DNA from: Escherichia coli
GTDB taxonomy: Bacteria > Pseudomonadota > Gammaproteobacteria > Enterobacterales > Enterobacteriaceae
Assembly (NCBI RefSeq): GCF_013315695.1
Contig: NZ_CP054353.1
Strand: one strand, 5' to 3'
DNA: 64,000 bases
Notes under the pieces: generated by a model
Seen by the model: the letters and a program-made list of their open reading frames with translations, nothing else
What the model was told of the DNA's origin: nothing
Database searches by the model: none
Translations under genes and position numbers: made by a program
In this document: positions 2,704-28,364 of the stretch, piece by piece
Position numbering within the stretch: the first letter of the stretch is position 1
How the letters are laid out: every line of letters begins with the position of its first letter

Positions 2704-3207
2704 TTAGAGTTCGCGTAGCATCCGCACTTCACAATCGACATGGCCCGTGCAGCCAAGCGCATAGTCGATATGCTCAAAGCCCAAATGCTCATAAAGCGCA
2801 ATGGCTTCCTTTAAAAAAGCGGTCGTTTCCAGATAGCAGCGTTTGAAGCCCATTTCTCGTGCCTGCTCCATCGCCATTAAGGCCAGTTTTTTCGCCAGCC
2901 CTTTACCGCGAATAGCCGGAAGAAAATACATCTTTTGCAGTTCGCAAATGTCCGATTCACTACCTGCTAATGGCGCAATCCCACCGCCGCCGACCACTTC
3001 ACCCTCGTACTCAACCACCCAATATGCATGACCCGGCTGACTATACACTTGATACAGCTCGTCAAGATTCGGATCGGCGACGGTGTAGCCTTTATCAGCG
3101 GTAAGACCGTATTCGGCGGATACCTGACGAATGACGCGGGCGATAGCAGGATTATCCTGCAACGTCAGGCGACGCATTACAGGTGATTGCGGCGCAATGT
3201 TATTCAT
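2704..3207 (-). CDS. yjgM: GNAT family N-acetyltransferase
   Basis: 167 aa with acetyl-CoA binding R-G-x-G-x-A-type motif ([10 protein letters not shown]); K-12 synteny. Confidence 0.85.
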
Positions 3208-12412: not shown

Positions 12413-13928
12413 ATCTCGCCTGACTTACCTTCTTCTCCCCCCCCAGCAAACTCCCCAACATCCCGCGTACAATCTGATTCGTCACCTGGCGAGCGGCGCT
12501 TTTGGCCATTGTTTGCACCACACCATCTTTCTTCCCGCCGCGTGGTCCGGTAGTGCCGAACAAAATATCCTTCAATCCACCAAGAATGCCGTCATCCACC
12601 GCTACCTCTTTCCCTTTCGCGGGGGGATTATTTTGCTGCTCGGTACTGGCCTGAAAGCCTTTTTGCAACATCTCATAGGCGGATTCCCGGTCCACCTCAT
12701 CCTCATATTTGCCATACACCGGAGAGTGATTAATCAAGCCATTACGCTCATCTTCCGTCACCGGTCCCATCCGCGAACAAGGCGCAATCACCATCGCCCG
12801 TTCCACCACAGAAGGGCTTCCTTTCGCATCCAGAAAAGAGATCAACGCCTCGCCGGTGCCCAGTTTCTGAATCGCCTTTTCGGTATCAAATGCCGGATTG
12901 ACCCGCATGGTTTGCGCCGCAGCTTTTACCGCTTTCTGATCTTTGGGCGTAAAAGTCCGCAAAGCGTGTTGAACGCGATTACCGAGCTGGCCGAGCACGT
13001 TATCCGGAATATCGGACGGATTTTGCGAAACGAACCAGACGCCCACGCCTTTTGAGCGAATAAGCCTTATCACCTGCTCAATCTTATCCAGCAGTACCTG
13101 CGGTGCATCGTTAAACAGCAGATGTGCCTCGTCGAAGAAAAACACCAGTTTTGGTTTCTCCAGATCGCCCGCTTCCGGCAATTGTTCATACAACTCCGAG
13201 AGCATCCACAACAGGCTGGCGGCATACAGTTTCGGCATCTGATAAAGCTTCTCGGCGCTGAGGATATTGATAACGCCTTTACCGTTGGCATCGGTGCGCA
13301 TCCAGTCTTTGATATCCAGCATCGGCTCACCAAAGAAGTGTGCTGCGCCTTGCTGTTCCAGCGACAACAGCCCGCGCTGGATGGCACCAACCGATGCGCT
13401 ACTGATATTTCCGTACTGATTCTGGAAAGATTTGGCGTTATCGCCGATGTATTGGGTAATCGCCCGCAAATCTTTAAAGTCGAGCAGTAACAGCCCCTGA
13501 TCGTCAGCAATGCGGAAGATGATATTCAGCACGCCAGATTGCACATCGTTGAGATTCAACAGCCGCGCCAGCAACAGCGGCCCCAGATCCGAAACCGTCG
13601 CCCGCACCGGATGGCCTTTCTCGCCAAAGATATCCCACACCACCACCGGATTGGCATGCGGTTGCCAGTCATTGACGCCGATATTTTTAAGCCTTGTGAG
13701 CAGTTTTTCCGACGCCGTTCCTGCCTGCGCGATACCGGTCAGATCGCCTTTCACATCAGCCATAAACACCGGCACGCCGATTTCCGACAATGACTCTGCC
13801 AGTTTTTGCAGCGTAACGGTTTTACCCGTCCCCGTTGCGCCAGTAATCAGCCCGTGACGGTTAGCCATTCCCGGCAGTAAAAACAGTTCTGTGTCCGGCG
13901 TGCGGGCAATTAACAGGGGTTCGCTCAT
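12399..13928 (-). CDS. yjgR: DUF853 family P-loop NTPase
   Basis: Walker A GATGTGKT; start set at MSEPLL with GGAGG RBS to give about 500 aa. Confidence 0.85.
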
Positions 13929-14055: not shown

Positions 14056-15075
14056 TCAGAAGTCAGCTTTCAGGACTACTCGGTAGCGAGCTTTACCATC
14101 GCGTACATGCTGAATGGCGTCGTTAATTTTCGACATCGGGAACAGTTCGGTTGTCGGCGCAACCTTGCTGCGGGCGGCAAAGCGCATCAGCTTTCGCAGC
14201 TCATAAGGCGTGCCGGTAGCAGAACCAGAGATGCTGCGGTCGCCCGCAATTAACGTAAAGGCCGGAACAGACAGCGGCGTGAGAACCGCACCGACCGTAT
14301 GGAAATTACCGCCATAGGTCAGCGCCTCAAAATAAGGCTGCCAGTCGAGGCTGACGTTCACAGTATTGATAATGAGATCAAACTGCCCCGACAGGGCTTT
14401 CAGTGCCTGCGGATCGCGGCTATTCACCACTTTATCGGTACCCATCGCCAGTACTTCCTGCTCTTTCGCCGGATTAGAACTAAAGGCCGTCACCTCGCAT
14501 CCCATTGCGTGCAGAAGTTTTATAGCGATATGCCCCAGCCCGCCAATACCAATTACCCCAACGCGGCTGGTAGCAGTGATATGGTGCATCAACAGTGGTT
14601 TAAAGACCGTGATACCGCCGCACAACAGCGGCCCGGCGGACTCGATATCAATATTTTCTGGCAGTGGAATCACCCATTGCCAGTCCGCACGCAACTTCTC
14701 GGCAAAGCCACCGCGATTCATAATCGTCGGCACCGCACCTTGCTCGCAGTTGATCTGATTACCGCTAATACAGGCGTCGCAGTGACCACAGCTACGCGCC
14801 GTCCAGCCAATCCCGACACGCTGACCGACCTGCAAACCTTTATCCTGCGCGGCGCTCCCGAGTGCCACCACGCGCCCAATCACCTCATGCCCGGCAACCA
14901 GCGGATATTGTGAAAATCCCCATTCGTTATCGATCATCGACAGATCGGAATGACAAATCCCGCAGTAATCCACCTGCACTTCAACATCTTGTGGCTTCAG
15001 CTCACCGGGATCGTACTCATAAACTTCCAGTTCGCCGCCCGCTTCTTTTGCGGCATAGCTTTTTATCATCGACAT
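14056..15075 (-). CDS. ahr: NADPH-dependent aldehyde reductase, zinc-type alcohol dehydrogenase family
   Basis: Zn-binding GHE and CGxCxxC motifs plus GxGxxG Rossmann motif; start set at MSMIKSYAA (339 aa). Confidence 0.9.
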
Positions 15076-15270
15076 TTTTGGGTCCTTCTCTGGTGTTGTT
15101 TGGGAAGTGTAGAGCATGGCAGGGCGGGGTGCCTGGAGTGTGACAAAGGTTACATATCGCTGAGTGTAATGCTGAAAATTTCAGCACTTAGCGAGGTGGG
15201 TGCAAGCTGGCGCTTGCATGGTGGCGTGCGACAGGTATAATCCACAACGTTTTCCGCATACCTCTTCAGT

Positions 15271-15355
15271 GCCGAAGTGGCGAAATCGGTAGACGCAGTT
15301 GATTCAAAATCAACCGTAGAAATACGTGCCGGTTCGAGTCCGGCCTTCGGCACCA
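15271..15355 (+). tRNA. leuX: tRNA-Leu (anticodon CAA)
   Basis: 85-nt sequence gccgaagtggcgaaatcggtagacgc...ggcacca with long variable arm and CAA anticodon loop, ending in CCA. Confidence 0.92.
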
Positions 15356-15357
15356 TC
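15313..15357 (+). repeat. Direct repeat copy 1 (leuX 3-prime end, attachment-site core)
   Basis: 45 bp identical except one mismatch to 25708-25752. Confidence 0.8.
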
Positions 15358-15889
15358 TACATTTTCCTCTTGAAAAACAAGCGATTAAGTAAATTATTTT
15401 ACCTTTTTTGCCTATCTAATCTTCACTGATTCTTTCCCGTATAAAAGCCACTGTGATTGTTAATGGCTTTGGTATGTTAGCACGCAGTGGCAAGTAGTTA
15501 CCAGGCTCAACCTTGTACTGCATACGCCAGTATGCCCCCCTTTGAAGCAGGAAGACGCGCCGCCGTCTCTAAACCTATGCCAAGCACTTTTAACCGTTCC
15601 ACACTTAGTTCGGCGTTCCGTTCAAGCCTGTCGTGGTGACTTACCACGAATAAACAAGCAAATTCGCGGTATGGTATTCGTTACGAGAGCGGTTAACTGA
15701 CAAGACTCCTGTGATACGCCTAAGGTGCTTAAATTGATGCGTCCAACATGGCACAAAAGGCGGTCTATCGTTTAATTTTGCTCCATACATCAACTGGCAT
15801 TGCCAGCTGTATGGGGCTTGGTCTGCTGGTTCCGATGAACGGATTAAATTGCTAAGATGCAGACCATAAGCCATAAGGCGGAGATAAGT

Positions 15890-17098
15890 ATGAAATCTGT
15901 AGAACTATTTGCCGGTGCTGGTGGCTTGGCTATGGGTTGCGAAATTGCTGGTTTTGAGCATCTTGCAGTCGTTGAATGGGATAAATGGGCCTGTGATACC
16001 GTTAGAGAGAACAAAAAGAATGGCTTTCCGCTGTTGTCTGATTGGGATCTTTTTGAGGGTGATGTAAGAGAATTTGATTGGTCGAAAATCCCTAAAGGGA
16101 TTGACCTTCTTGCGGGAGGGCCACCTTGCCAGCCATTTTCAATCGGTGGTAAGCACAAGGCTAATTCTGATTCGCGGGACATGTTTCCAGCGACAGCAGA
16201 AGCGATCAGGCAAATTCGCCCTAAGGCTTTCATCGTCGAGAATGTGAAAGGCTTAACACGGGCAACCTTTGCGAGCTATTTCCAGTACATCCAGTTACAG
16301 CTTGAGTTTCCAGAAGTAGCCCCGCGAAATGGCGAAGACTGGAGCGAGCATTTAAAACGCTTGCAGGAAGAAAAAACCAGTGGAAAGAACAAAGGGAGAG
16401 GGCTGACGTATAACGTTCTGGCTACGTTAGTCAATGCAGCAGACTACGGCATCCCACAAAAACGTGAGCGTGTCTTCATTGTTGGCTTCCGCGATGATCT
16501 TGAAATTGAGTGGTCGTTCCCTAAACCGACACACAGTTATGATGCACTCGTTTATGATCAGTGGGTTACTGGTGATTACTGGAAACGACATGGTTTAGAA
16601 ATGCCAACTGTTCCAAGCCAGATGGTTAACCGTATCGCAAAATTGCGTAAAAATCCTCCCGATACACTTCCGTGGAAAACTGTTCGAGATGCAATCGCGG
16701 ATTTGCCAGATCCTGAAACAAAGGCGGCAAAGATGATCCGGAATCATGCGTTCCAGGCGGGGGCACGAACTTATCCCGGTCATACCGGAAGCCCCTTAGA
16801 TCTGCCAGCTAAAACGCTCAAAGCAGGTGCTCATGGCGTTCCTGGGGGCGAGAACATGCTTGTTCGTGATGATGGCTCAGTACGCTATTTTACTGTGCGA
16901 GAAAGTGCCAGAATTCAAACATTTCCCGATAGTTATCGTTTTCACGGGAGTTGGACTGAAACTATGAGGCAGTTAGGTAACGCTGTGCCGGTTCATTTGG
17001 CGTATTGCGTTGCCAGCAGTGTAGCGGAAAAGCTGCTGACCTCTGAAATTGGGAACATCCTTAAGCAGGGTGGCAATTATAAAAGGGCTTCTGCATGA
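15890..17098 (+). CDS. DNA (cytosine-5)-methyltransferase, Type II R-M modification subunit
   Basis: Motif I FAGAGG, motif IV GGPPCQPFS, motif VI ENVKGL; start set at MKSVELF with GGAG RBS. Confidence 0.88.
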   Translation: MKSVELFAGAGGLAMGCEIAGFEHLAVVEWDKWACDTVRENKKNGFPLLSDWDLFEGDVREFDWSKIPKGIDLLAGGPPCQPFSIGGKHKANSDSRDMFPATAEAIRQIRPKAFIVENVKGLTRATFASYFQYIQLQLEFPEVAPRNGEDWSEHLKRLQEEKTSGKNKGRGLTYNVLATLVNAADYGIPQKRERVFIVGFRDDLEIEWSFPKPTHSYDALVYDQWVTGDYWKRHGLEMPTVPSQMVNRIAKLRKNPPDTLPWKTVRDAIADLPDPETKAAKMIRNHAFQAGARTYPGHTGSPLDLPAKTLKAGAHGVPGGENMLVRDDGSVRYFTVRESARIQTFPDSYRFHGSWTETMRQLGNAVPVHLAYCVASSVAEKLLTSEIGNILKQGGNYKRASA

Positions 17099-17745
17099 CA
17101 GGAAAGGTCATACCATTTAATCCACTTGATAAACAAAATTTAGGTGCCAGCGTTGCGGAAGCCTTATTGAGCAAAGATGCTCATCCTCTGGAGGAGTTAA
17201 CCTCATTTCAAGGAGCAGGGATTTACGCAATTTATTACACTGGCGATCATCCTGCTTATAGGCAACTGGCAGAACTGAATCGTGACGGGCAATTTCGATT
17301 GCCTATCTACGTGGGTAAGGCCGTCCCAGCAGGGGCGAGAATGGGGCTTACCAACCCTGATAAGGTTGGTAACGTTCTGTTTAGGCGCTTGAAAGAACAT
17401 GCAGAAAGTATTCGCGCAGCGGAAAATCTTTCGATTGAAGATTTTTATTGTCGATTTTTGGTTGTTGATGACATCTGGATCCCATTGGGAGAATCGCTGG
17501 TTATCTCTCGCTTTAAACCGATTTGGAATTCGTCTATTGATGGTTTCGGTAATCATGACCCAGGTAAGCATCGCTACACTGGTTTACGTCCTCGCTGGGA
17601 CTTTATGCACCCGGGGAGAGGATGGGCTCAAAATTTACGTGAGCGTGATGAAACTGTGGATGAACTCATTCGTGATTCTATACAGTATCTTCAGAATTTA
17701 CCGCCTTGCTTGGCTCAGAAATTTATCGAAGCTGAAGGCGATTAA
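17095..17745 (+). CDS. GIY-YIG family restriction endonuclease (Eco29kI-like)
   Basis: GIYAIYY ... YVGKA motifs; 216 aa; start overlaps the methyltransferase stop (ATGA). Confidence 0.6.
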   Translation: MTGKVIPFNPLDKQNLGASVAEALLSKDAHPLEELTSFQGAGIYAIYYTGDHPAYRQLAELNRDGQFRLPIYVGKAVPAGARMGLTNPDKVGNVLFRRLKEHAESIRAAENLSIEDFYCRFLVVDDIWIPLGESLVISRFKPIWNSSIDGFGNHDPGKHRYTGLRPRWDFMHPGRGWAQNLRERDETVDELIRDSIQYLQNLPPCLAQKFIEAEGD

Positions 17746-17866
17746 TCAGCAAATGATCATCGGAGGCATCTGCCTCCGAATGTGATTAAGCCTTGGTTGA
17801 CAAAGTGGTTGCTTAAAACATTAAGCGTTAATTTTCTGGCCCTCTACCTTCTGACGTGCATAATTC

Positions 17867-18442
17867 TCAAATATCAGGGAGTTGCAAGAACGACTTAAGT
17901 CGGTAGAAGGTTGCTTTGCTGATCTCTAACCTATCCTGGACCGCTGCTGGTGGTAATCCTCGTGCTAATAACTCACGTACTTGTTCAACGGTTGCTTTGA
18001 TCGGTCTGCCGCAATGCTTACCTTCCGACTGAGCTCGTTTGATTCCTGCGGCTCTACGCTCTGCGATTAGGTCTTTTTCCAGGCTGGCAAGTCCTGCCAT
18101 CATAGTGAGCATGGCTTTACCCACTGGTGTTGAAAGATCAAACCCCTCTCGCAAGCTGACAACCTTCACACCCTTCATTTGCAACATTTCAACAGTAGAT
18201 AGTACATCGATAGTGTTACGTCCCAAGCGGTTTATAGCAATCACGATCAGCGTATCGCCTTCTCGCACATAATTGAGTAGTTCAGCAAACCCTGGACGCT
18301 CTCCTGCCTTGATTGCACCACTCACCGCTTCATCACTAAACCAGCGAGTTACGCTATAACCAGCATCGGCTATCTGCTTCTTCTGGTTTTCAACGTTTTG
18401 ATCGCTGGTGGAAACTCGCACATATCCGATCACAGTTGTCAT
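17867..18442 (-). CDS. serine recombinase (resolvase/invertase family)
   Basis: N-terminal GYVRVSTSDQ catalytic serine motif and C-terminal HTH; 191 aa. Confidence 0.88.
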   Translation of the reverse strand: MTTVIGYVRVSTSDQNVENQKKQIADAGYSVTRWFSDEAVSGAIKAGERPGFAELLNYVREGDTLIVIAINRLGRNTIDVLSTVEMLQMKGVKVVSLREGFDLSTPVGKAMLTMMAGLASLEKDLIAERRAAGIKRAQSEGKHCGRPIKATVEQVRELLARGLPPAAVQDRLEISKATFYRLKSFLQLPDI

Positions 18443-18449
18443 GATGTTC

Positions 18450-18580
18450 TCTAAGTCTCAAAAGGTAGTGTCAAAATAATAGCTGTCTCAAAATTAAAGA
18501 TCAACCTTTTGAGACAAGGCGAAGCCGCATTCTGTCGTTGCGTCGGTGTGGTCTTATAAGGAGATGGTTTTGAGACTGGA
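18450..18580. promoter_or_regulatory. Candidate recombination (res-like) site upstream of the serine recombinase
   Basis: Four copies of GTCTCAAAA: two direct (18456, 18485) and two inverted (18507, 18568). Confidence 0.35.
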
Positions 18581-18681
18581 TAGCAGCGGTTTAGGAATAG
18601 AGGCTTGGAACGAGAGTATGGGGAGAATGGAAATTCGGAATGGGCGGTCAACTTATTGGGCGTGATTGCTCACGCCTTTGT

Positions 18682-19033
18682 TTAGATCTCAGAACACAGG
18701 CTCAGCGTGTAGAGTGCCGTTTCACCATCGTTGTTAGTTGGGCGCATAACGAAAACTGGATCACTGCCGTTGTCGATGTAAGTAACCGCTATTCCACCGT
18801 CTGGGGTGGCGTACATCTTCGCAATACTTTTCTCTCCAATGAAACCCAGCCGCCAGGTTTTACCACCCATGCTCACTTTCATGATTTTGTCCCGCACATC
18901 GAGGCGAGTTTCGACAGACGATTTTTGGCTACCAGAATCTATCTGCCCTTCCTGAATGGCCTTACAGGTGAATGTGGTTGCACTTGAGGCGAAGGGGGGG
19001 GACGAGCAGCGCCGCGAGAATCAATTTTTTCAT
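18682..19033 (-). pseudogene. Small secreted protein gene disrupted by a frameshift in a G8/C8 homopolymer
   Basis: ATG at 19033 encodes signal-peptide-like MKKLILAALLVPP, then the frame breaks at the C8 run (18994-19001); removing one C fuses it to ORF 18682..18897. Confidence 0.5.
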
Positions 19034-19213
19034 GGTCTTCCTTTTGGATACGAGTTAAGAGTTCGTCGGGAGACATTATAAAATCTTTAATTGATAAAAA
19101 CGATCAATTTCTATCGTATTGATCGATAAAATTGATCATAATTGAAACTATAAATCCTACGCTCAGTCGTTATGGATGAGGTTTTTTATAAGAGAACTCA
19201 ACGGGATGATGTT

Positions 19214-19420
19214 ATGAAAAGAGCAATGATGGTGATGTGTGGGCTACTGTTTTCACAGTTGGTAGCAGCAGGGCAGATCACAATGATCGATCCCCAGCAG
19301 GATACGACGGAGAATGGCAAGACGCTTTGCACCTACGAGAACAGCCAGTATGTTTTTACCTACGTCACTAAAGGGCAGTGCCCCTATGCAAAGACTTTCG
19401 ATACTCAGGATTCAGAGTAG
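19214..19420 (+). CDS. small putative secreted protein (about 68 aa, two Cys)
   Basis: Internal start MKRAMMVMCGLLFSQLVAAG gives a signal-peptide-like N-terminus. Confidence 0.4.
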   Translation: MKRAMMVMCGLLFSQLVAAGQITMIDPQQDTTENGKTLCTYENSQYVFTYVTKGQCPYAKTFDTQDSE

Positions 19421-20490
19421 AGGCTGCATAAAATAGGAAGTGTTGTTTAACTTCATGAAAAGACAGGTGTGCTTAGCACAAGCCTCCAACGGATTGATTG
19501 TTAATTCTTCTGATAACGGCACAGCGCAAGGCTTTACGCAAAGAGAGTGATAGTTACTATCTTGATGACTATGGCAATTTTCCCCCTGTAACAACGGCAT
19601 TCATTACCTGCTAATTACCAGCGGATTACGCGCCAGTTTGATGGGAATTAACTCAGGGTTATTGCATGGGGTAGTGTGGAGTGAGCAGGGTGACAGTCTA
19701 CCGTTGGGTGAAGGGCTGATAGGTAATCGACGCGAAGCGCCGGAACCATACTGTTATGCGCTGGCCTTGGTGCCAGGCTCACGCCGCGCATGAAAGATAG
19801 CCATTACAGGAGAGATAATTTTTGACAAGTTACCTTCATCAAAGGTGCTTCTCCTGTATAAATGCTTGTTATGCTCGCTATGCTCCCAAACACAAACCCA
19901 TTAAACCCAACTAACTTAAGGTTAGTTAATTGGTTTTCTCTCTCTCTTGGGCTACTACCGCCCAAACTTTGCTTAATGCCATACAGCGACTACGCCGCCA
20001 TTAACAACACTCCACAATGATCCAATGGCATTCCTGCTTAATGTCATCCACCGATCTTGATTAGCCACCAACCAAACAACCACCCTAAATCTTTTAGGCT
20101 GTCTGTTTATCTGGTGCAAGGTAGCTATGACATTACCATACGTGCAAACATCCCAAGCCAATCATCACTGATTGGCTCGTGCTGATGCACTTCAGTGCAG
20201 AGAGAGAATCTCTCTACTATTATAGCGTATTTAGTAGGTCCCTGTATTTAAAGGAAAAATTAGGGTGAAAATCGCCATTGTTCACTTTTTTTCTCAAGAA
20301 ATGGCGAGATGCTGTTCGTAAATGGGAGGCATGGCTGTCTTCTCTGGTGGCAAGTTCTACCACAAATTTTGATTGACAGCAACCATCTATTTCTGGTATA
20401 AGAAGCACTAATTGCAAAGCAAAAATGCAACTAATTGAAAATGACCAAAAATATTTCATGAGATCACCGTTTGGGTATTGACAAACGTTA

Positions 20491-20781
20491 GTGGTCTATG
20501 GTATTCTTAATACTAAGAAGGGGAGAAAACCTTCTGAACTTTTCAGCCCTGGGCAGGGTAACTGCCTGGGGCTTTTTGCATCCAAAATCCGAAGGAGGCC
20601 ATTATTGAAGTATTACAGCAGTGACCAGATTTTTAATGACCTGGTGAGCGGCGAAGTGAAACGCCACGTTATTTACGCATCTATGCAAGCAGCAAAATCG
20701 AGAGGGTATACAGACCGAATGGAAATGTTTCAATCTGCAATTATCCGTTATGACCAACACCGAAGGGAGAACACCAACTAA
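20491..20781 (+). CDS. small hypothetical protein; true start may be the TTG at about 20608 after the AAGGAGG RBS
   Basis: ORF 10 nt upstream of the 306-aa ORF; strong RBS aaggagg at about 20593. Confidence 0.4.
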   Translation: MVYGILNTKKGRKPSELFSPGQGNCLGLFASKIRRRPLLKYYSSDQIFNDLVSGEVKRHVIYASMQAAKSRGYTDRMEMFQSAIIRYDQHRRENTN

Positions 20782-20790
20782 GGAGGAACA

Positions 20791-21711
20791 TTGATTCAAG
20801 CATACGAAGACGGCTATTTTTACAGAGATACCCCGCACCACGATCACTGCCCGCTTTCAGCATTTTCCAGACCATCCCAGCAATTCATCGTTATTGATAA
20901 TGTTCTGTACGTTGTCGAAGTGGAAAGTGGTGAAATTCTTCACTACGACTCGACAGAGTATTTGCTTGATGGTGGCATTGTTCAGGATCTGCATTTGAGT
21001 TACTCGACAGCAGACACCGCCAAATCAAAACAGGCTCACCGTGAATACGCTAATAAGCTGGGCGACCTTCCAGGGAATGCAGCCTATAACGGGATCAAGG
21101 AATACGCAGACGTATTAAGCAAGCCAGATTTCAAGAAAGTATTTGCATTGTGTCAGGAAGTAGATAGACGCAATGTAGTGTTTATAAAACGTGCGGATTT
21201 GAGCATAATACTGAACACCACGCCGGATCATCTCAATCGTGTATTATCTGCTCTTGAACGTAAGCACTACATCAAAGTTGATAAAGCTGAACACCAGAAA
21301 GGAGTATTAAAACTGTGGGTTAATCCTTCGTTTGTCTGGAAGGGTGATTCAGCTAACCGCTACTTATCTGGATATTTGCAGGGCTTCCCAATCTTGGAAC
21401 GTAAACGCTCCACAAAACGTTCTGACGTGCTCGACACGCTCACGGCTGCTGCAATGGTTGCCTTTGATACCTGGCACATTGAACACGGTTATAAGGCCAA
21501 TCAGCCTCATTCTAATGAATGGTATGCAGAGATCACGATGTACGAAAACGCCTACGGCGAAGGGGTGAGGCTTGCAGCAGAAAATAAGACATTGAACAAG
21601 TTATTGAACCCGGCAACATCTGAGGGGGATTTCGTTTATGAGCTATTCACTACGGCACAATACAGGGAATACCTGCAAACATTGGCAAAACAAGTAAGGA
21701 GATTACACTGA
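20791..21711 (+). CDS. hypothetical 306-aa protein with possible winged-helix segment
   Basis: Long ORF with GGAGG RBS; no recognisable catalytic motif. Confidence 0.6.
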   Translation: MIQAYEDGYFYRDTPHHDHCPLSAFSRPSQQFIVIDNVLYVVEVESGEILHYDSTEYLLDGGIVQDLHLSYSTADTAKSKQAHREYANKLGDLPGNAAYNGIKEYADVLSKPDFKKVFALCQEVDRRNVVFIKRADLSIILNTTPDHLNRVLSALERKHYIKVDKAEHQKGVLKLWVNPSFVWKGDSANRYLSGYLQGFPILERKRSTKRSDVLDTLTAAAMVAFDTWHIEHGYKANQPHSNEWYAEITMYENAYGEGVRLAAENKTLNKLLNPATSEGDFVYELFTTAQYREYLQTLAKQVRRLH

Positions 21712-21995
21712 ACCAATGTTTTGTAATAAAGAAGCCAGCACAATACTTATTTGAACTAAATTAAGCAACTCTCATACACACCGCTCTTTTGGTGAGTTAT
21801 TTATTACTATCTTTAAGGTGATGAGTGTTTATACTGTATTAAATTATTATAAATAAGGGGATGGTGTATGATTACAGCTCTTTATTGGTGTTTGTTCTTT
21901 CAGTTTGCGCTGTATTTTTTGTCTAAATTAAATTTAAATTGAAAATTAGCCCTGATCTTGAAATAGTTCAGGGCTGGAATTTCTAAAAAATAACA

Positions 21996-22955
21996 TCAGT
22001 GTGCTTTTAGTTCATCTTTAGCTAATGAGTCATAGAGTATTTTTGTGAGCGGAGACTCTAAATAATCATCACTAAGTAGTTTAATAAAATGCTTTTGGGA
22101 TTCTTTTGTTTTTACGAGCAATTGTGTGCCGTCTTCACTTACAATTAAAACTGTTGAAAGATAGGTATGCTTGCTTACATAATCGATAATTTCTGGCACA
22201 TCAATTTTCCCCAGTACAGGTGAGTGTTTGGCAATTTTGGCAAGCTTCCTTGAGAAAGAAATTTCTTTTGCACTCTTCTCAAGGTGAGTAAGATCTTCGA
22301 TAAGCAATGAAGCTTTCAATGCTTCCAAAGCCACCGTTGCTTGAGCTTCAATAACCTGATGGAACTGCATCGTTATTTCTAAAGTTTTTTGATTTTTTAT
22401 CAGGAATTCGTCGTCTATAAGAGCCAAGTCATAATTATAATCTAATCGGAACACTTGGGTTGGCAATTCTTTTAAATACCCGTCTGCGTCTGGTATCAAG
22501 TTAAACAATTTTCGGCTTTGCTCAAAAACCATGAGGTTTGTTTTGTTCTTATACAATGACAAACACTTATTGTTGCCTCTTAACTGAATTATTATCCCTT
22601 TCACGTCAGTAAATTTATTATTTAAATCATAATAATCCTGAGAGTTAGGCGGTATGGCTATTGCATTTTTTATAAAATCAAACTCTTTTGGATGTTCTTC
22701 ATAATCAAATGCAAACAAGGCATTTTTTCTATCATCAAAATTCGAAAGGAGAGGAATGGTTAAATCCTCATTTGTCACAATGTCGTCGTAAAGCCTAATT
22801 TTGAATCCTTCAACAATTTTTGGTAAAGCTTCAGCATCTATTTTAGATAATTTTAATTCATAATTATCTTCAGTTTTAACTATAAAGATAATTCTTATAC
22901 CTGAGAAATTATCGAAAATTTCGGTGATTTGATTTTTAAAATTCACAGGGGTCAT
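21996..22955 (-). CDS. 319-aa soluble protein, KwaB-like (candidate Kiwa component)
   Basis: Co-oriented with and overlapping the membrane protein gene; size and order match the Kiwa KwaA-KwaB arrangement. Confidence 0.55.
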   Translation of the reverse strand: MTPVNFKNQITEIFDNFSGIRIIFIVKTEDNYELKLSKIDAEALPKIVEGFKIRLYDDIVTNEDLTIPLLSNFDDRKNALFAFDYEEHPKEFDFIKNAIAIPPNSQDYYDLNNKFTDVKGIIIQLRGNNKCLSLYKNKTNLMVFEQSRKLFNLIPDADGYLKELPTQVFRLDYNYDLALIDDEFLIKNQKTLEITMQFHQVIEAQATVALEALKASLLIEDLTHLEKSAKEISFSRKLAKIAKHSPVLGKIDVPEIIDYVSKHTYLSTVLIVSEDGTQLLVKTKESQKHFIKLLSDDYLESPLTKILYDSLAKDELKAH

Positions 22956-23572
22956 TATTTTTTCCTTGCTATGAAAACGTAGTCATCAAAAAAACTATAG
23001 AATACTTGATCGTCAACAGTCAGCACATCCATCGAGATTGCAATGACGTTTTTTACTTCACCACTTCCTGCATGAGAAATGTTAACTCTATACAACTTAT
23101 AACCGAAAAGCGCCAAAGTAGGATTCGCATAATACTTATCCGTTTTAATGAAAATTAAACCAATAACTACTATTAAGAGAAAGTACGCAATGTTTTTCTG
23201 AGGGTCATCAAAACTGAATCCCATAAAAGGTACTATGTAAGTTGCTAAGAAAGTCAAACTTTCATAGCTCTCACTTTGGCAAGCAGTGATTGTTACACAG
23301 TCAGCATTGTTGACCTTCGTCAATCCTTTAAACCTTCTATAGAAATAAAATGCTATTCCTATAAAAATTAAACAAATTATTGAGATTATGTTGCTGGAAG
23401 CTAATTGATAAAAACCTATAAAATGGCAGGAAGAGCCATAACAAAATGGGATTTTTGCGCTCAAAATGATAATAAAAACAAACAGCAACATTAAAGACAG
23501 TATGTATAGTCCCATCTTGTTGAATGTGCTTTTTCGTTTCATGTTATCCCCCAGTGATGAAATCATAATCAA
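22955..23572 (-). CDS. four-TM membrane protein, KwaA-like (candidate Kiwa component)
   Basis: 205 aa with four hydrophobic helices; AT-rich; stop overlaps start of downstream gene. Confidence 0.6.
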   Translation of the reverse strand: MIMISSLGDNMKRKSTFNKMGLYILSLMLLFVFIIILSAKIPFCYGSSCHFIGFYQLASSNIISIICLIFIGIAFYFYRRFKGLTKVNNADCVTITACQSESYESLTFLATYIVPFMGFSFDDPQKNIAYFLLIVVIGLIFIKTDKYYANPTLALFGYKLYRVNISHAGSGEVKNVIAISMDVLTVDDQVFYSFFDDYVFIARKK

Positions 23573-23826
23573 AACTTGATCATGTGAACATCAAAAGCAT
23601 ACCTTAAAGCACTGGTTTTTTGTACAGCAATCGGCAAATTCATGCGTACTATCGAACTTACAAGAGGACGCATAGTAGATTTTCTGATCCAAATTGCCAT
23701 CATGTACTTTTAATTCATGTAGAGTAGCCAATGAAGTATCAGCAATTACATGATTTTATTGTCTATTTTTTATGTTTTTTTGTAAAACACCAGAAGATTG
23801 AAAAGGGCCAATGAGGCCCCTTGGCG

Positions 23827-24078
23827 TTATTTACGGTTTTTGTTGGATTGAGCCAGCACGGAAGCAGCAAGCTGCTTGGTTAAAGTACTGGAACGTGGAT
23901 TATCCAGCGCCGCAGATGCTTTATGTTCCATTGCACCACTTGTCTGATTTGAGGAACCTTTTTGAGAGAGAGCTGAACCAGCAAGGCTCTTCTGAATTGC
24001 AGATGCGTTGGGGTTGTTTAGGGTTTGTGCTGCGACTGATGCGACTTTACTTGATGTTTGCTTTGAATTGTTAGCCAT
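23827..24078 (-). CDS. small S/A/Q/N-rich protein with internal repeats
   Basis: ORF with repeated KxxASxxAQ-like segments; start set at MANNSK. Confidence 0.35.
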   Translation of the reverse strand: MANNSKQTSSKVASVAAQTLNNPNASAIQKSLAGSALSQKGSSNQTSGAMEHKASAALDNPRSSTLTKQLAASVLAQSNKNRK

Positions 24079-24309
24079 TCTCAACACCTATTCAAGAAGT
24101 GAATTATTGAACATCTTGTATTTAAATCAAGAATGAATACAAGATGTAGTGTTAATGATAATCCTCACCGCTTCGCTGTGCAACGATGAAAAATCTCTTT
24201 ACTGGATAAAACTACAGTTTTAAAAATGTGCGGTATTTCTGCTTTCAAATTGGCTTAATGTGCATACATTTAGATGATACCACTGCGTTTTCTGATCGTT
24301 ATTCGTTCA

Positions 24310-25593
24310 CTATTTATCAGTTTTCTCACGTTGGGGCTCCGTCTCTATCTCTGGGTAACGTAATAGCTCGATGTATGGCTGTAGTTCAATCGGAGATGCT
24401 GCATTCTTGCTGTACGTCTTGAAACTTTCTGTAGAGCCGCGCTCATGACCCAAGAGAAGTGCGATCCGGTCTTCTGTAACTGGTTTTAACTTACCTCGTC
24501 CAACCCCCCCACGATCCAGAATCTGCGCCACTGCATGGCGTAGACTGTGAAAAACTTTCAACTCTGATCCTACTTCCCCCAATGCCTTACGTTTAGCCCT
24601 CGTAAAACGCTGTGAATGCCACGTAGAGCGCTTTCCATCTGCGCGGTCAGCTATCGACGCACGATAGAATAAAAAGCCGTTATGGGGCTTCTCACGCAGC
24701 GACAAAACCAACGGAGTGATCAGGCTATGCACCGGAATAATACGGGCTGCTGATTTGGTCTTCCCCTCCGTCACTTCGAAACATAACACCCCTTCAATCT
24801 CTCGGATGTTGGCTGCACGTAATGAACAAATTTCATTCAGGCGCATACCGCTATACATCCCGATCAGCGTTACATTTTGCATCTCTTCATCATTCGCCAT
24901 CACAGCGAACACCTTCGCCAATTCTCCAGGCTCAAATACTTCATAACTCACCTTGCTACTTTTGGCCTCCAGCGCATGACCGCGCCAGATGTTTTCTTGC
25001 GGTGCATCGTGGTAGCGATTACGGGCCAGATCCCAGATTTGAGCCAGTGCGCTGACATAGTTTTGTATGGTCTGTGGTGCTTTCTCCGTCTTGAGCTGAT
25101 CAAGCCAGCCTGTAACGGTGGTTCGGTTAACGTCACGAAGCTGAACATCACGCTTTTTCAGATGTTCTAAGAGCACTTCAACAGCCTTGTTTGTCTTCGA
25201 TAGCGTAGTGAGTTTGCGCTTCTCGCTGAACTGCAATAGATAAAGATCACGCATTTTCAGGAGGGATGGCACTCCTTGGGATTGGGTATTGCTCATGACA
25301 TGCTGAACAGGTGTTTCATGAACTCGGGCGCTAACTCTGCGTAGCTCTGCAATTGCCTGCTCAATCTTACTCCCTTCTCTTGGTTTGACCTGTTCCCGTA
25401 AACGTATCCATTCAACAGCGATAGCATCTCTGAACAATCGCGCCTGACGTATGTCACTTGTGCCAGTGCTCTTGACGAAGTAGCGCTTGTTGCCAAAAAG
25501 CGAGCGCATGTAAGCTGGAACGGTAATCCTTACCAGATAGTTTCCGCATGGATCTAAAACTAAGTAACGATCTCTCTTGAAACTCATGTTCAC
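24310..25593 (-). CDS. tyrosine-type site-specific integrase
   Basis: C-terminal catalytic region with HSLRH and LLGH motifs; adjacent to the distal direct repeat. Confidence 0.88.
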   Translation of the reverse strand: MNMSFKRDRYLVLDPCGNYLVRITVPAYMRSLFGNKRYFVKSTGTSDIRQARLFRDAIAVEWIRLREQVKPREGSKIEQAIAELRRVSARVHETPVQHVMSNTQSQGVPSLLKMRDLYLLQFSEKRKLTTLSKTNKAVEVLLEHLKKRDVQLRDVNRTTVTGWLDQLKTEKAPQTIQNYVSALAQIWDLARNRYHDAPQENIWRGHALEAKSSKVSYEVFEPGELAKVFAVMANDEEMQNVTLIGMYSGMRLNEICSLRAANIREIEGVLCFEVTEGKTKSAARIIPVHSLITPLVLSLREKPHNGFLFYRASIADRADGKRSTWHSQRFTRAKRKALGEVGSELKVFHSLRHAVAQILDRGGVGRGKLKPVTEDRIALLLGHERGSTESFKTYSKNAASPIELQPYIELLRYPEIETEPQREKTDK

Positions 25594-25707
25594 CCCGGCT
25601 ATTTTGTAAGGGCTTTTACATGGGGAAGTTTCCTGTGTAGATTGTTGGAGCGGCGAATTATTAGCAGTTGATTCAATAGCTTAGATCAGCTTGCTGGACA
25701 AGCGAAC

Positions 25708-25752
25708 ACCGTAGAAATACGTGCCGGTTCGAGCCCGGCCTTCGGCACCATC
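25708..25752 (+). repeat. Direct repeat copy 2 (partial leuX 3-prime end)
   Basis: accgtagaaatacgtgccggttcgagcccggccttcggcaccatc matches tRNA 3-prime end 15313-15357 with one mismatch. Confidence 0.8.
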
Positions 25753-25948
25753 GGAACATCAATAGACGTCAACGGACGTCTTTTTTTGTGCCTAAAATCC
25801 AGTATCCGCAAGGCTTTCCTCGCTTTTTCACTCAACCTAAGTCAACCTGATTCAATCTACATCAACTTACTGATGCGGGTACAACTGCGGGTATTTCCCG
25901 GTTCGATAATGTTTGTACCCACACAGAACCCTTGAAAGGATACTCATC

Positions 25949-27126
25949 ATGGCTCTGAGTGATGTGAAGGTTCGTTCGGCTAAGCCTGAAGCAAAAGCCT
26001 ATAAGCTGACCGACGGTGAAGGCATGGTTTTGCTGGTTCACCCTAACGGCTCCAAATACTGGCGGCTACGTTATCGCTTTGGCGGTAAAGAGAAGATGCT
26101 GGCATTGGGGAAATACCCCGAAGTGTCGTTGGCGGATGCCAGGGCACGCCGGGATGAGGCTCGTAAGCTTTTAGCTAATGGTGTCGATCCCAGTGAAAAC
26201 AAGAAAGCTGTTAAGGTAGAATAGGAACAAGAGGCGATAACGTTTGAAGTAGTCGCCAGAGACTGGCACGCCAGCAATCAGAAGTGGTCGGCATCGCATA
26301 GCGCTCGTGTTTTGAAAAGTCTGGAGGATAATCTCTTTACTGCTATCGGTAAGCGGAACATTGCGGAACTGAAGACGCGGGATCTTCTTGTACCCATTAA
26401 AGCAGTCGAGTCATCCGGGCGGCTCGAAGTTGCCGCCCGTTTACAGCAGCGTACTACCGCGATTATGCGCTTTGCCGTTCAGAGCGGCTTAATCGACTAC
26501 AACCCCGCGCAAGAGATTGCAGGTGCGGTTGCTACGGCGAAAAGACAGCACCGTGCAGCTCTTGAACTGAACCGTATACCTGAATTACTTCATCGCATAG
26601 ATCACTATTCTGGCAGACCGTTAACTCGACTGGCGGTTGAACTCACTTTATTGGTTTTCATCCGTTCGAGCGAGCTGCATTTTGCCCGCTGGTCAGAAGT
26701 AGATTTTGAAACGGCTATGTGGACAATCCCAGGTGAGCGTGAGCAACTGGAAGGAGTCAAGCATTCTCAGCGTGGCTCGAAGATGCGGACACCACACCTT
26801 GTACCTTTGTCGCGGCAGGCCCTAAGTATTTTGGAAAAGATCAAAAGCATGAGCGGAAATTGAGAGCTGATTTTTGTGGGCGATCACGATCCACGTAAGC
26901 CGATGAGTGAGAATACGGTGAACAAGGCTTTGCGCGTAATGGGGTATGACACGAAGGTCGAGGTTTGTGGGCATGGCTTCAGGACGATGGCTTGTAGTTC
27001 GTTGATTGAGTCGGGATTATGGTCGAGGGATGCGGTAGAGCGGCAGATGAGTCACCAGGAGCGTAGCTCTGTGCGAGCCGCTTACATCCATAAGGCGGAA
27101 CATCTTGGGGAGCGTAGGTTGATGTT
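25949..27126 (+). pseudogene. intB: P4-type integrase, fragmented and truncated by IS911
   Basis: N-terminus MALSDVKVRSAKPEAKAYKLTDGEG; reading frame broken into three ORFs; 3-prime end replaced by IS911 left end. Confidence 0.8.
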
Positions 27127-27198
27127 TGAAGTGGCACACTGAATTTGGCCACCTGAACAGAGGTGATATGCTCACCTCAGAACAACACAGGTGCTCCA

Positions 27199-28364
<1,166 letters not shown>

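Follow-up and report, generated by a model that had tools for sequence, protein, structure and literature searches.

A defense-carrying integrative element with a tRNA-distal integrase at leuX, inserted ahead of an older P4-type island in Escherichia coli

The tRNA gene leuX is defense hotspot #37 of Escherichia coli, the most occupied of 41 such hotspots, and most of its occupants carry integrase or recombinase genes and belong to no identifiable type of mobile genetic element (PMC10121019, PMC12707154). How most of the genes at this hotspot are mobilized could not be assigned in published work (PMC10121019). That integrative elements accrete in tandem is well established; PMC11551731 cites it as a general phenomenon, and the streptococcal arrays of integrative and conjugative elements (ICEs), integrative and mobilizable elements (IMEs), and cis-mobilizable elements (CIMEs) are an example. 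Here, we analyzed a 64,000-nucleotide (nt) stretch of E. coli DNA (the window; RefSeq assembly GCF_013315695.1, contig NZ_CP054353.1) in which leuX is separated from an older island with a P4-type integrase. With a probability of roughly 0.85, the intervening segment (positions 15358 to 25707) plus one copy of a core sequence constitutes a discrete integrative element that was inserted at leuX ahead of the older island. The element resembles the leuX defense islands of Hochhauser et al. (2023, PMC10121019) in its locus, its defense cargo, and its possession of an integrase without recognizable conjugation or phage machinery.

The boundaries of the element are set by a direct repeat of the leuX 3′ end (Table 1). 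leuX is the sole tRNA gene found by ARAGORN and Rfam and shows no differences from leuX of K-12, and tRNA alone was matched among Rfam families across positions 15000 to 26500. The repeat comprises tRNA positions 43 to 85, which are the last 43 bases of leuX, and 2 flanking bases. Its distal copy lies where the first-pass annotation of this DNA had placed it and aligns with one substitution (T15339 versus C25734) at the last base of the T-loop. No further copy of the 45-mer (up to 3 mismatches, both strands) and no shorter leuX-derived copy (16 to 24 nt) was found in the 64 kb, where the chance expectation for such a repeat pair is estimated at about 1e-16. No other significant repeat was seen in the region. 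The span from repeat to repeat is 10,440 bp, matching the 10.4 kb proposed earlier, of which 10,350 bp are unique to the element, and the GC content between the repeats is 30 to 48%, compared with 52 to 55% in the flanking core genome. The apparent length of the repeat depends on the downstream flank, being 45 bp before the decayed island, 44 bp in strain MS15047, and 43 bp in strain E1739; therefore, the true identity between attP and attB is 43 bp. The mismatch was rejected as a clue to the crossover point, and is uninformative about the history of the locus, because C25734 is a single-nucleotide polymorphism (SNP) private to this strain and missing from every other carrier; the repeats of EcPF7, MS15047, and E1739 are perfect. 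As the first-pass annotation had also noted, an intact tyrosine integrase gene and a degraded P4-type integrase gene lie on either side of the distal repeat. The former is an uninterrupted open reading frame (ORF) whose 5′ end faces the repeat from 114 bp inside the element, and the latter begins 196 bp beyond the repeat.

Table 1. Features of the leuX region, in window coordinates (aa, amino acids; HTH, helix-turn-helix; R-M, restriction-modification)
Feature	Position	Strand	Evidence or remark
leuX, tRNA-Leu(CAA)	15271-15355	+	ARAGORN; Rfam tRNA 59.4 bits; intact, 3′ part doubles as attL
attL core, proximal copy of 45-bp direct repeat	15313-15357	+	attP/attB identity, 15313-15355
Left end, noncoding	15369-15583		75-84% nt identity (blastn versus L007, L008, L046); putative P′ arm of attP
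C5 DNA cytosine methyltransferase, type II R-M M subunit	15890-17098	+	TIGR00675 5.5e-53; PADLOC MTase_II 5e-135; RefSeq annotation
Eco29kI-family GIY-YIG restriction endonuclease	17095-17745	+	PADLOC REase_II 1e-153; PDB Eco29kIR 2e-39
Small serine recombinase, resolvase/invertase type	17867-18442	-	NCBIfam serine-recombinase matches
Small secreted-protein ORF, frameshifted	18682-19033	-	Annotated as frameshifted; C8 tract at 18994-19001 on plus strand
Conserved 30-nt motif AGTGAGCAGGGTGACAGTCTACCGTTGGGT	19680-19709	+	In gene-poor stretch; overlaps tiny annotated ORF
Small ORF before winged-HTH gene	20491-20781	+	No Pfam match
306-aa winged-helix protein	20791-21711	+	Pfam HTH_Crp_2 1.8e-4
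kwaB, Kiwa effector	21996-22955	-	NF041623 1e-72, above cutoff; PADLOC 1e-116; PDB KwaB 1e-131
kwaA, Kiwa membrane sensor	22955-23542	-	NF041622 6e-57, above cutoff; PADLOC 1.6e-79
Small low-complexity ORF	23827-24078	-	phrog_5079 (unknown function); annotation
Element integrase (int), tyrosine recombinase, 427 aa	24310-25593	-	Pfam DUF6538, SAM-like, and catalytic (Phage_integrase) domains; full length
Right end	25594-25707		Putative P arm of attP and int promoter region
attR core, distal repeat copy	25708-25752	+	Carries private SNP C25734
Native leuX intrinsic terminator	25764-25788	+	Terminator scan; hairpin 25764-25781 plus T-run
Decayed P4-type (intB-like) integrase	25949-27130	+	Pfam Arm-DNA-bind_3, Phage_int_M, Phage_integrase

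Comparison with 5,426 complete E. coli genomes identified a precise presence/absence polymorphism at these boundaries. A query for the empty site, in which window positions 14858 to 15357 were joined in silico to positions 25753 to 26552, was contiguous in 2,709 of the 5,426 genomes (best match, 1299/1300). The first-pass annotation had named intB as the gene that follows leuX in K-12; this arrangement was confirmed, with an intB pseudogene directly after the tRNA, but the pseudogene in the window is a homolog representing a different allele (72% nt identity). The element is present at 80% coverage or more in six genomes (EcPF7, NCTC9080, MS15047, JSWP006, MINF_7C, and E1739), including a 93% variant in E1739 and copies in JSWP006 and MINF_7C that are cut by an insertion sequence (IS) at about position 25590, while a seventh genome, CEA106S, holds a copy disrupted by IS100. 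It adjoins leuX in every carrier, and its right boundary falls inside the repeat before three unrelated sequences: in EcPF7 and the window the decayed island follows, in MS15047 an intact P4-like satellite, and in E1739 another integrase pseudogene. A discrete unit found in six to seven genomes and in three downstream contexts bears out the earlier proposal of a newer integrative element at leuX.

None of the complete genomes searched is identical to the window. The closest over positions 15200 to 25900 is EcPF7 (comparison with NZ_CP054232.1), which has T in place of C25734 and differs at one other point in the element. EcPF7 is a urine isolate from Dallas and MS15047 a cerebrospinal fluid isolate from Sweden; the flanks of the latter diverge from the window by 0.04%, and MS15047 belongs to the lineage of the window. 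Between the window and JSWP006, the element differs by 0.098% and the 5 kb upstream of leuX by 2.26%, and the element has therefore moved recently between lineages. The whole element is absent from plasmids, and positions 24342 to 25277, encoding the C-terminal two-thirds of the integrase, have relatives of 87% identity on 13 plasmids of E. coli, the majority of them conjugative.

The relative age of the two insertions is recorded in the decay of the older island. Its P4-type integrase gene contains in-frame stops at 26222 to 26224 and at about 26861, and an IS3 copy (27199 to 28364) cuts the C terminus. A C-to-T change at position 26222 creates the first stop (TAG) where strain C9 has CAG. 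This nonsense codon and the 1,450 nt around it show 0 differences in EcPF7, MS15047, EC24, and JP538, which also have the same IS3/IS66/ISEc45 mosaic. EcPF7 and the window have this element between leuX and the old island, and MS15047 has the element together with a P4-like satellite. In JP538, the intervening DNA is a P4-like satellite that encodes one SIR2 and one ATP-binding protein, and in EC24 it is a P4-integrase island with a dptF remnant and CbtA/YeeU. Identical decay beneath four different proximal occupants implies that the old island and its decay predate all of the proximal insertions, and the reading of a newer element ahead of an older island was thus correct. P4-type neighbors leave a leuX remnant of 22 to 24 nt, with a 1-nt deletion in three genomes, while this element duplicates 43 bp, a difference that may account for its constant association with the intact tRNA gene. 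The remnants in MS15047 (L056:~3000-3024), EC24 (L057:~13000-13024), and JP538 (L058:~13000-13022) are without one G (CTTC-GCACC versus CTTCGGCACC; L numbers denote compared loci). Three different P4-type elements lie upstream of the G-less remnants, and the window and EcPF7 keep the intact sequence. This pattern suggests that P4-type attP cores themselves lack the G and that their crossover lies 3′ of the missing base.

The integrase of the element is not of the P4 type, as its N terminus carries DUF6538 instead of Arm-DNA-bind_3, and BLASTP detected no similarity between it and the neighboring P4-type integrase (E = 5.4). The catalytic residues R251, K278/K280, H349, R352, H383, and Y394 are invariant across six relatives. 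No match to the integrase was obtained among isolated phages or in PDB, and a literature search for DUF6538 found none. With its catalytic set, tRNA 3′-end repeats that restore the tRNA, and a precise presence/absence polymorphism, the element shows these three properties of a tRNA-targeting tyrosine-recombinase island. Its anatomy fits classical integration by a tyrosine recombinase. The two ends of the element (15369 to 15583 and 24342 to 25707, the latter including int) are conserved together, and solely in elements with related integrases, as expected for two attP arms plus int. Within the right arm, positions 25664 to 25676 (GCAGTTGATTCAA) are identical over 13 nt to leuX positions 25 to 37, anticodon included. 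They are followed by an unrelated 31-nt insert with the hairpin GCTTG-CTGGA-CAAGC and then by the 43-bp identity, so that the arm resembles part of leuX into which DNA was inserted immediately 3′ of the anticodon. This arrangement is kept in L007, L008, L012, and L046; L042 differs in having uninterrupted leuX identity for at least 20 nt upstream of the 43-bp core (~64 bp in total). A search for arm-type repeats in the reconstructed attP found no repeated 9-mer.

Strain 8600 and a subgroup of relatives narrow down the site of strand exchange. In strain 8600, the attL 3′ end is the element-derived GGCATTC and attR retains GGCACCA, the outcome expected from the standard model of integration. The tRNA 3′ end is therefore contributed by the element, which places the crossover 5′ of the final three bases. 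One subgroup of relatives shares just a 31-bp block consisting of the T-arm and the acceptor 3′ strand. Strand exchange would fall inside the identity block and probably in the T-arm. Assuming a single crossover site for the whole family, we give an even chance to a position in the 31-bp block, the T-loop flanked by the inverted halves of the T-stem being the most plausible one. The C25734 SNP would then be a heterology in the overlap region that hinders excision in this strain.

We infer that this integrase catalyzed the insertion. In the proposed mechanism, the ends of the element would join around the core to form a circular attP (right end, core, left end), which the integrase would recombine with the last 43 bp of leuX. 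The replacement 3′ end from the element would keep leuX intact at attL, while the original leuX 3′ end, the native terminator, and the older P4-type island would be pushed 10.4 kb downstream as attR. The same terminator sequence directly follows leuX in genomes without the element. The element arrived after the integrase of the fec-carrying island had already been lost, and it spreads horizontally among E. coli lineages and related genera.

Several observations weigh against this reading. The two cores in this strain differ at one T-loop base, and excision would be impaired if that base lies in the overlap. Ten of the 23 ORFs of at least 75 aa were scanned (NCBIfam and PADLOC, with 3 also compared with PHROGs), yielding no match to a relaxase or coupling protein and no recognized capsid or packaging gene (NCBIfam and PHROGs), and the genes recognized in the element supply no cell-to-cell transfer route. 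No Xis or other recombination directionality factor (RDF) was recognized with NCBIfam, PHROGs, or Pfam. The candidates for Xis or AlpA were rejected, as a 58-aa ORF before the winged-HTH gene has no Pfam match and an 86-aa ORF beside int matches only a PHROG of unknown function. The exact circular attP junction had no matches in the metagenome and viral contig collections, and a 63-nt leuX query against the phage collection, aimed at the attP of P4 itself, was uninformative. In MS15047, the P4-like satellite separates the element from the old island, making the arrival order of element and satellite ambiguous; arrays can thus also grow at the distal repeat, and position alone is no proof of order.

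Some of these observations are also those expected if the element is a fixed relic in this strain, kept for its defense genes and unable to excise or transfer. We regard this as a substantial possibility that nevertheless falls short of even odds. The one-base heterology between attL and attR, the failure to recognize an Xis/RDF or to find an attP form in the contig collections, and the damaged copies in JSWP006, MINF_7C, and CEA106S are all consistent with it. Set against them are an integrase ORF that is intact and conserved, two intact arms, and the perfect repeats of EcPF7, and the near-identity of the element across divergent hosts implies recent mobility. An integrative element with these properties may still be able to excise.

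A further alternative is that the arrangement was built elsewhere and entered this lineage within a larger leuX segment by homologous recombination, following transduction or conjugation. leuX is a hotspot of recombination and horizontal gene transfer (PMC12707154, PMC10121019), the conserved ahr/leuX region upstream and P4-type integrase sequence downstream offer homology, and transfer genes were not found in the element. Nonetheless, the downstream junction is with the lineage-specific version of the old island, whose sequence matches that of element-free sister genomes at all 1,450 nt compared, and the 5 kb upstream is identical to that of the sister genomes. With lineage-specific flanks on both sides, import would need a donor with the same flanks, and independent junctions in three contexts show that a site-specific route operates; we consider such an import improbable. 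The reverse order of events, with the 10.4-kb element first at leuX and the fec-carrying P4-type island entering its distal repeat later, can draw on the ability of P4-type elements to use a distal leuX remnant and on the satellite placed between the element and the old island in MS15047, but it is hardly credible given the same nonsense codon, second stop, and IS3 truncation in five genomes with four proximal occupants, an island directly beside leuX in thousands of genomes compared with an element in six or seven, and near-identity of the element across lineages with a 2.3% flank difference.

Insertion of a discrete element at leuX thus remains the preferred reading, and the predicted selectable cargo of this element is anti-phage defense, consisting of an Eco29kI-family R-M pair and Kiwa, a combination that qualifies the segment as an anti-phage defense island. 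The longest ORF of the methyltransferase gene begins at 15857, and the M gene and the endonuclease gene after it share 4 bp at their junction. The endonuclease is ~50% identical to Eco29kI over the GIY-YIG core. The canonical Eco29kI system has R before M and antisense control (PMC12707154). In the window, M precedes R, unlike the order on the Eco29kI plasmid pECO29, and the pair is predicted to be a member of the Eco29kI family only, not the Eco29kI system. The Eco29kI site CCGCGG occurs 0 times in the 10.35-kb element and 5 times in the 64-kb window, numbers too small for a claim. Kiwa has been characterized previously (PMC11785009), as have enzymes of the Eco29kI family, and both the kwaA and kwaB calls exceed the NCBIfam equivalog cutoffs. 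The native leuX terminator is now 10.4 kb away from the tRNA gene, and a scan of the 500 bp beyond attL (15356 to 15860) revealed no terminator-like hairpin; transcription of leuX may therefore continue into the element in the direction of the co-oriented methyltransferase gene.

Between the two defense modules lies a set of smaller genes. The serine recombinase is a backbone gene common to other small integrative elements. Positions 17857 to 19045 match the thiM island of E. coli C at 89.5% (megablast; 1.19-kb core), and 17857 to 19672 match it at 81.3% (blastn; ~1.85 kb), while the integrase of that island differs. The C8 tract lies in the signal-peptide region of the secreted-protein ORF. 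The frameshift is also present in EcPF7 and MS15047; the tract is C7 and in frame in JSWP006 and is interrupted in E1739 and E. coli C. The tract could be a slipped-strand on/off switch or simply a sign of decay. The conserved 30-nt motif contains an internal ACGGT/ACCGT-like palindrome and is kept, despite unrelated integrases and unrelated flanks, in the E. coli C thiM island, Franconibacter L046, and viral contigs L037 and L038. It was rejected as an RNA structure on the basis of a weak RNAalifold energy and no real covariation, and it may be a res or ori site. The small ORF that follows is weakly similar (blastp 5e-8) to L008_6930-7112, a 60-aa ORF before the Rep-like gene in capsid-bearing relatives. 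The winged-helix gene, whose product has no PHROG or NCBIfam match, occupies the position of a replication-initiator-like gene in those relatives.

Integrases with 73 to 83% aa identity were found in Franconibacter, Pseudenterobacter, Kluyvera, Enterobacter, Trabulsiella, Kosakonia, Citrobacter, and other E. coli. The leuX gene or a leuX 3′-end repeat is within reach of the relatives in Franconibacter, Enterobacter, Citrobacter, and other E. coli, and the tRNA gene within reach in the 73-to-83% set is always leuX, a specificity that this integrase family shows across Enterobacteriaceae. Where both ends are covered (Franconibacter L046 and E. coli L007 and L008), int lies at the tRNA-distal repeat. 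Franconibacter helveticus carries an 8.5-kb version with the same M-R pair at 90.6%, and in the metagenomic variant L012 the M-R pair is kept at 91% while the middle differs.

About 590 of the 5,426 E. coli genomes hold a relative of the int gene. The E. coli relatives examined are elements of 12 to 14 kb (L008:3010-15383, L007:1085-15383, L011:552-13225, and L010:3320-15153). In their layout, a serine recombinase gene is followed by 1.7 to 2 kb in which no genes are annotated; next come a Rep-like gene and one gene for a major head protein (Pfam Phage_cap_E, or phrog_29/267), and the DUF6538-type integrase lies at the distal end, at leuX or another site. Some of them also have tape-measure-like and tail-fiber-like genes, and no terminase or portal was recognized in them. 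These elements may represent an undescribed satellite family. Of this layout, the window element retains the integration module, the serine recombinase, and the small-ORF/HTH position, with Kiwa in the place of the relatives' structural genes. In E. coli C, an 11-kb island (L009:5877-17166) lies between two copies of a thiamine pyrophosphate (TPP) riboswitch upstream of thiM and has its own integrase, SIR2 and ImmA/HigB-type cargo, and the same serine-recombinase module. Judged by sequence, thiM is a second attachment site for the same backbone, and this backbone is modular, since the serine-recombinase module is 81 to 90% identical beside a different integrase. Together, these comparisons suggest a phage-satellite ancestry of the element within an undescribed satellite-like family. 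It is a more doubtful proposition that the element is a capsid-less, defense-loaded derivative of an undescribed enterobacterial satellite family that is still moved by a helper phage. If true, this would provide a mobilization route for the "integrase-only" defense islands that fill the leuX hotspot.

The older island downstream of the distal repeat is of the KpLE2/intB type, with a P4-type integrase, the fec operon, and IS remnants, and it is riddled with IS copies around a shf-capU-virK-lpxM cluster, fecIRABCDE, and Ag43. Positions 25753 to 64000 form a mosaic of IS3, IS66, ISEc45, IS100, IS1, and IS5 remnants and of gene sets that include TetR/DUF2254/BCCT transporter genes, polysaccharide deacetylase-capU-virK-lpxM, fecIRABCDE, a YmgB/AriR-like gene, YfjI, a GTPase gene, and Ag43. 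Clusters of the polysaccharide deacetylase-capU-virK-lpxM type are known from virulence plasmids. No third leuX-derived repeat marking the far end of this island was found in the window (16- to 45-mers, up to 2 to 3 mismatches).

Overall, the locus illustrates the stacking of foreign DNA at a single E. coli hotspot very cleanly, but as an example it is ordinary. What is new here is modest and comprises an unnamed element family with a distal DUF6538-type integrase, a 43-bp identity block, and a well-dated stacking history. The locus nevertheless offers a base-resolved case of a defense island forming an integrative unit complete in itself, with an integrase of its own outside the P4 type and with recent horizontal spread. 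The same "floor" island under four occupants provides a natural system for turnover rates at a tRNA hotspot, and the link of this integrase family to small elements bearing capsid genes leads to a testable mobilization hypothesis. For phage therapy and typing, the element predicts Kiwa and an extra type II restriction barrier in a uropathogenic lineage.

Among known systems, the phage defense elements (PDEs) of Vibrio and the tycheposons of Prochlorococcus are likewise small cargo elements with an integrase; their turnover at tRNA sites is rapid, and they determine resistance to phages. Their hosts differ and their integrases are unrelated to that of the window element, which makes the analogy a conceptual one only. 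Pipolin identity was rejected, as pipolins use a different tRNA-Leu gene between pgsA and yecA, and the element differs from an IME in that no relaxase was found in the ORFs scanned. Likeness to phage-inducible chromosomal islands (PICIs) and capsid-forming PICIs (cfPICIs) is seen in the integrase relatives, which reside in 12- to 14-kb elements with a Rep-like gene and a single major-head-protein gene. The window element differs from cfPICIs in having no capsid, terminase, AlpA, or primase genes, and a cfPICI-like identity was rejected because capsid morphogenesis genes of its own were not found in the ORFs scanned. The capsid-bearing relatives are without the full cfPICI morphogenesis set (PHROGs, Pfam, and NCBIfam), and membership in the cfPICIs is not claimed.

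P4-like satellites and KpLE2-type (intB) islands share with the window element the leuX target, a repeat of the leuX 3′ end, a size of 9 to 12 kb, and frequent defense cargo, and they neighbor elements of this type in the same arrays. The P4 type has an identity block of 22 to 24 bp and a proximal int, whereas the window element has 43 bp and a distal int, and the integrases have no sequence similarity and different domain architectures. The element is not a P4-like satellite, as its ORFs include no Arm-DNA-bind_3 integrase, psu, delta (ogr), sid, or alpha primase-helicase; psu, delta, sid, and a primase-helicase core are present in the neighboring satellites of MS15047 and JP538. Like the streptococcal arrays, the leuX array has grown by successive site-specific insertions with att copies between its members, but the integrases of its members are unrelated and only the target tRNA gene is common. 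Cis-mobilization of the decayed neighbor is not indicated because the window contains no third repeat. The review of the hotspot places the mobilizing integrase at the tRNA-proximal (left) anchor (PMC12707154), while the integrase in the window is of the DUF6538 type and tRNA-distal. Compared with the islands described at hotspot #37, the window element has boundaries that are resolved to the base.

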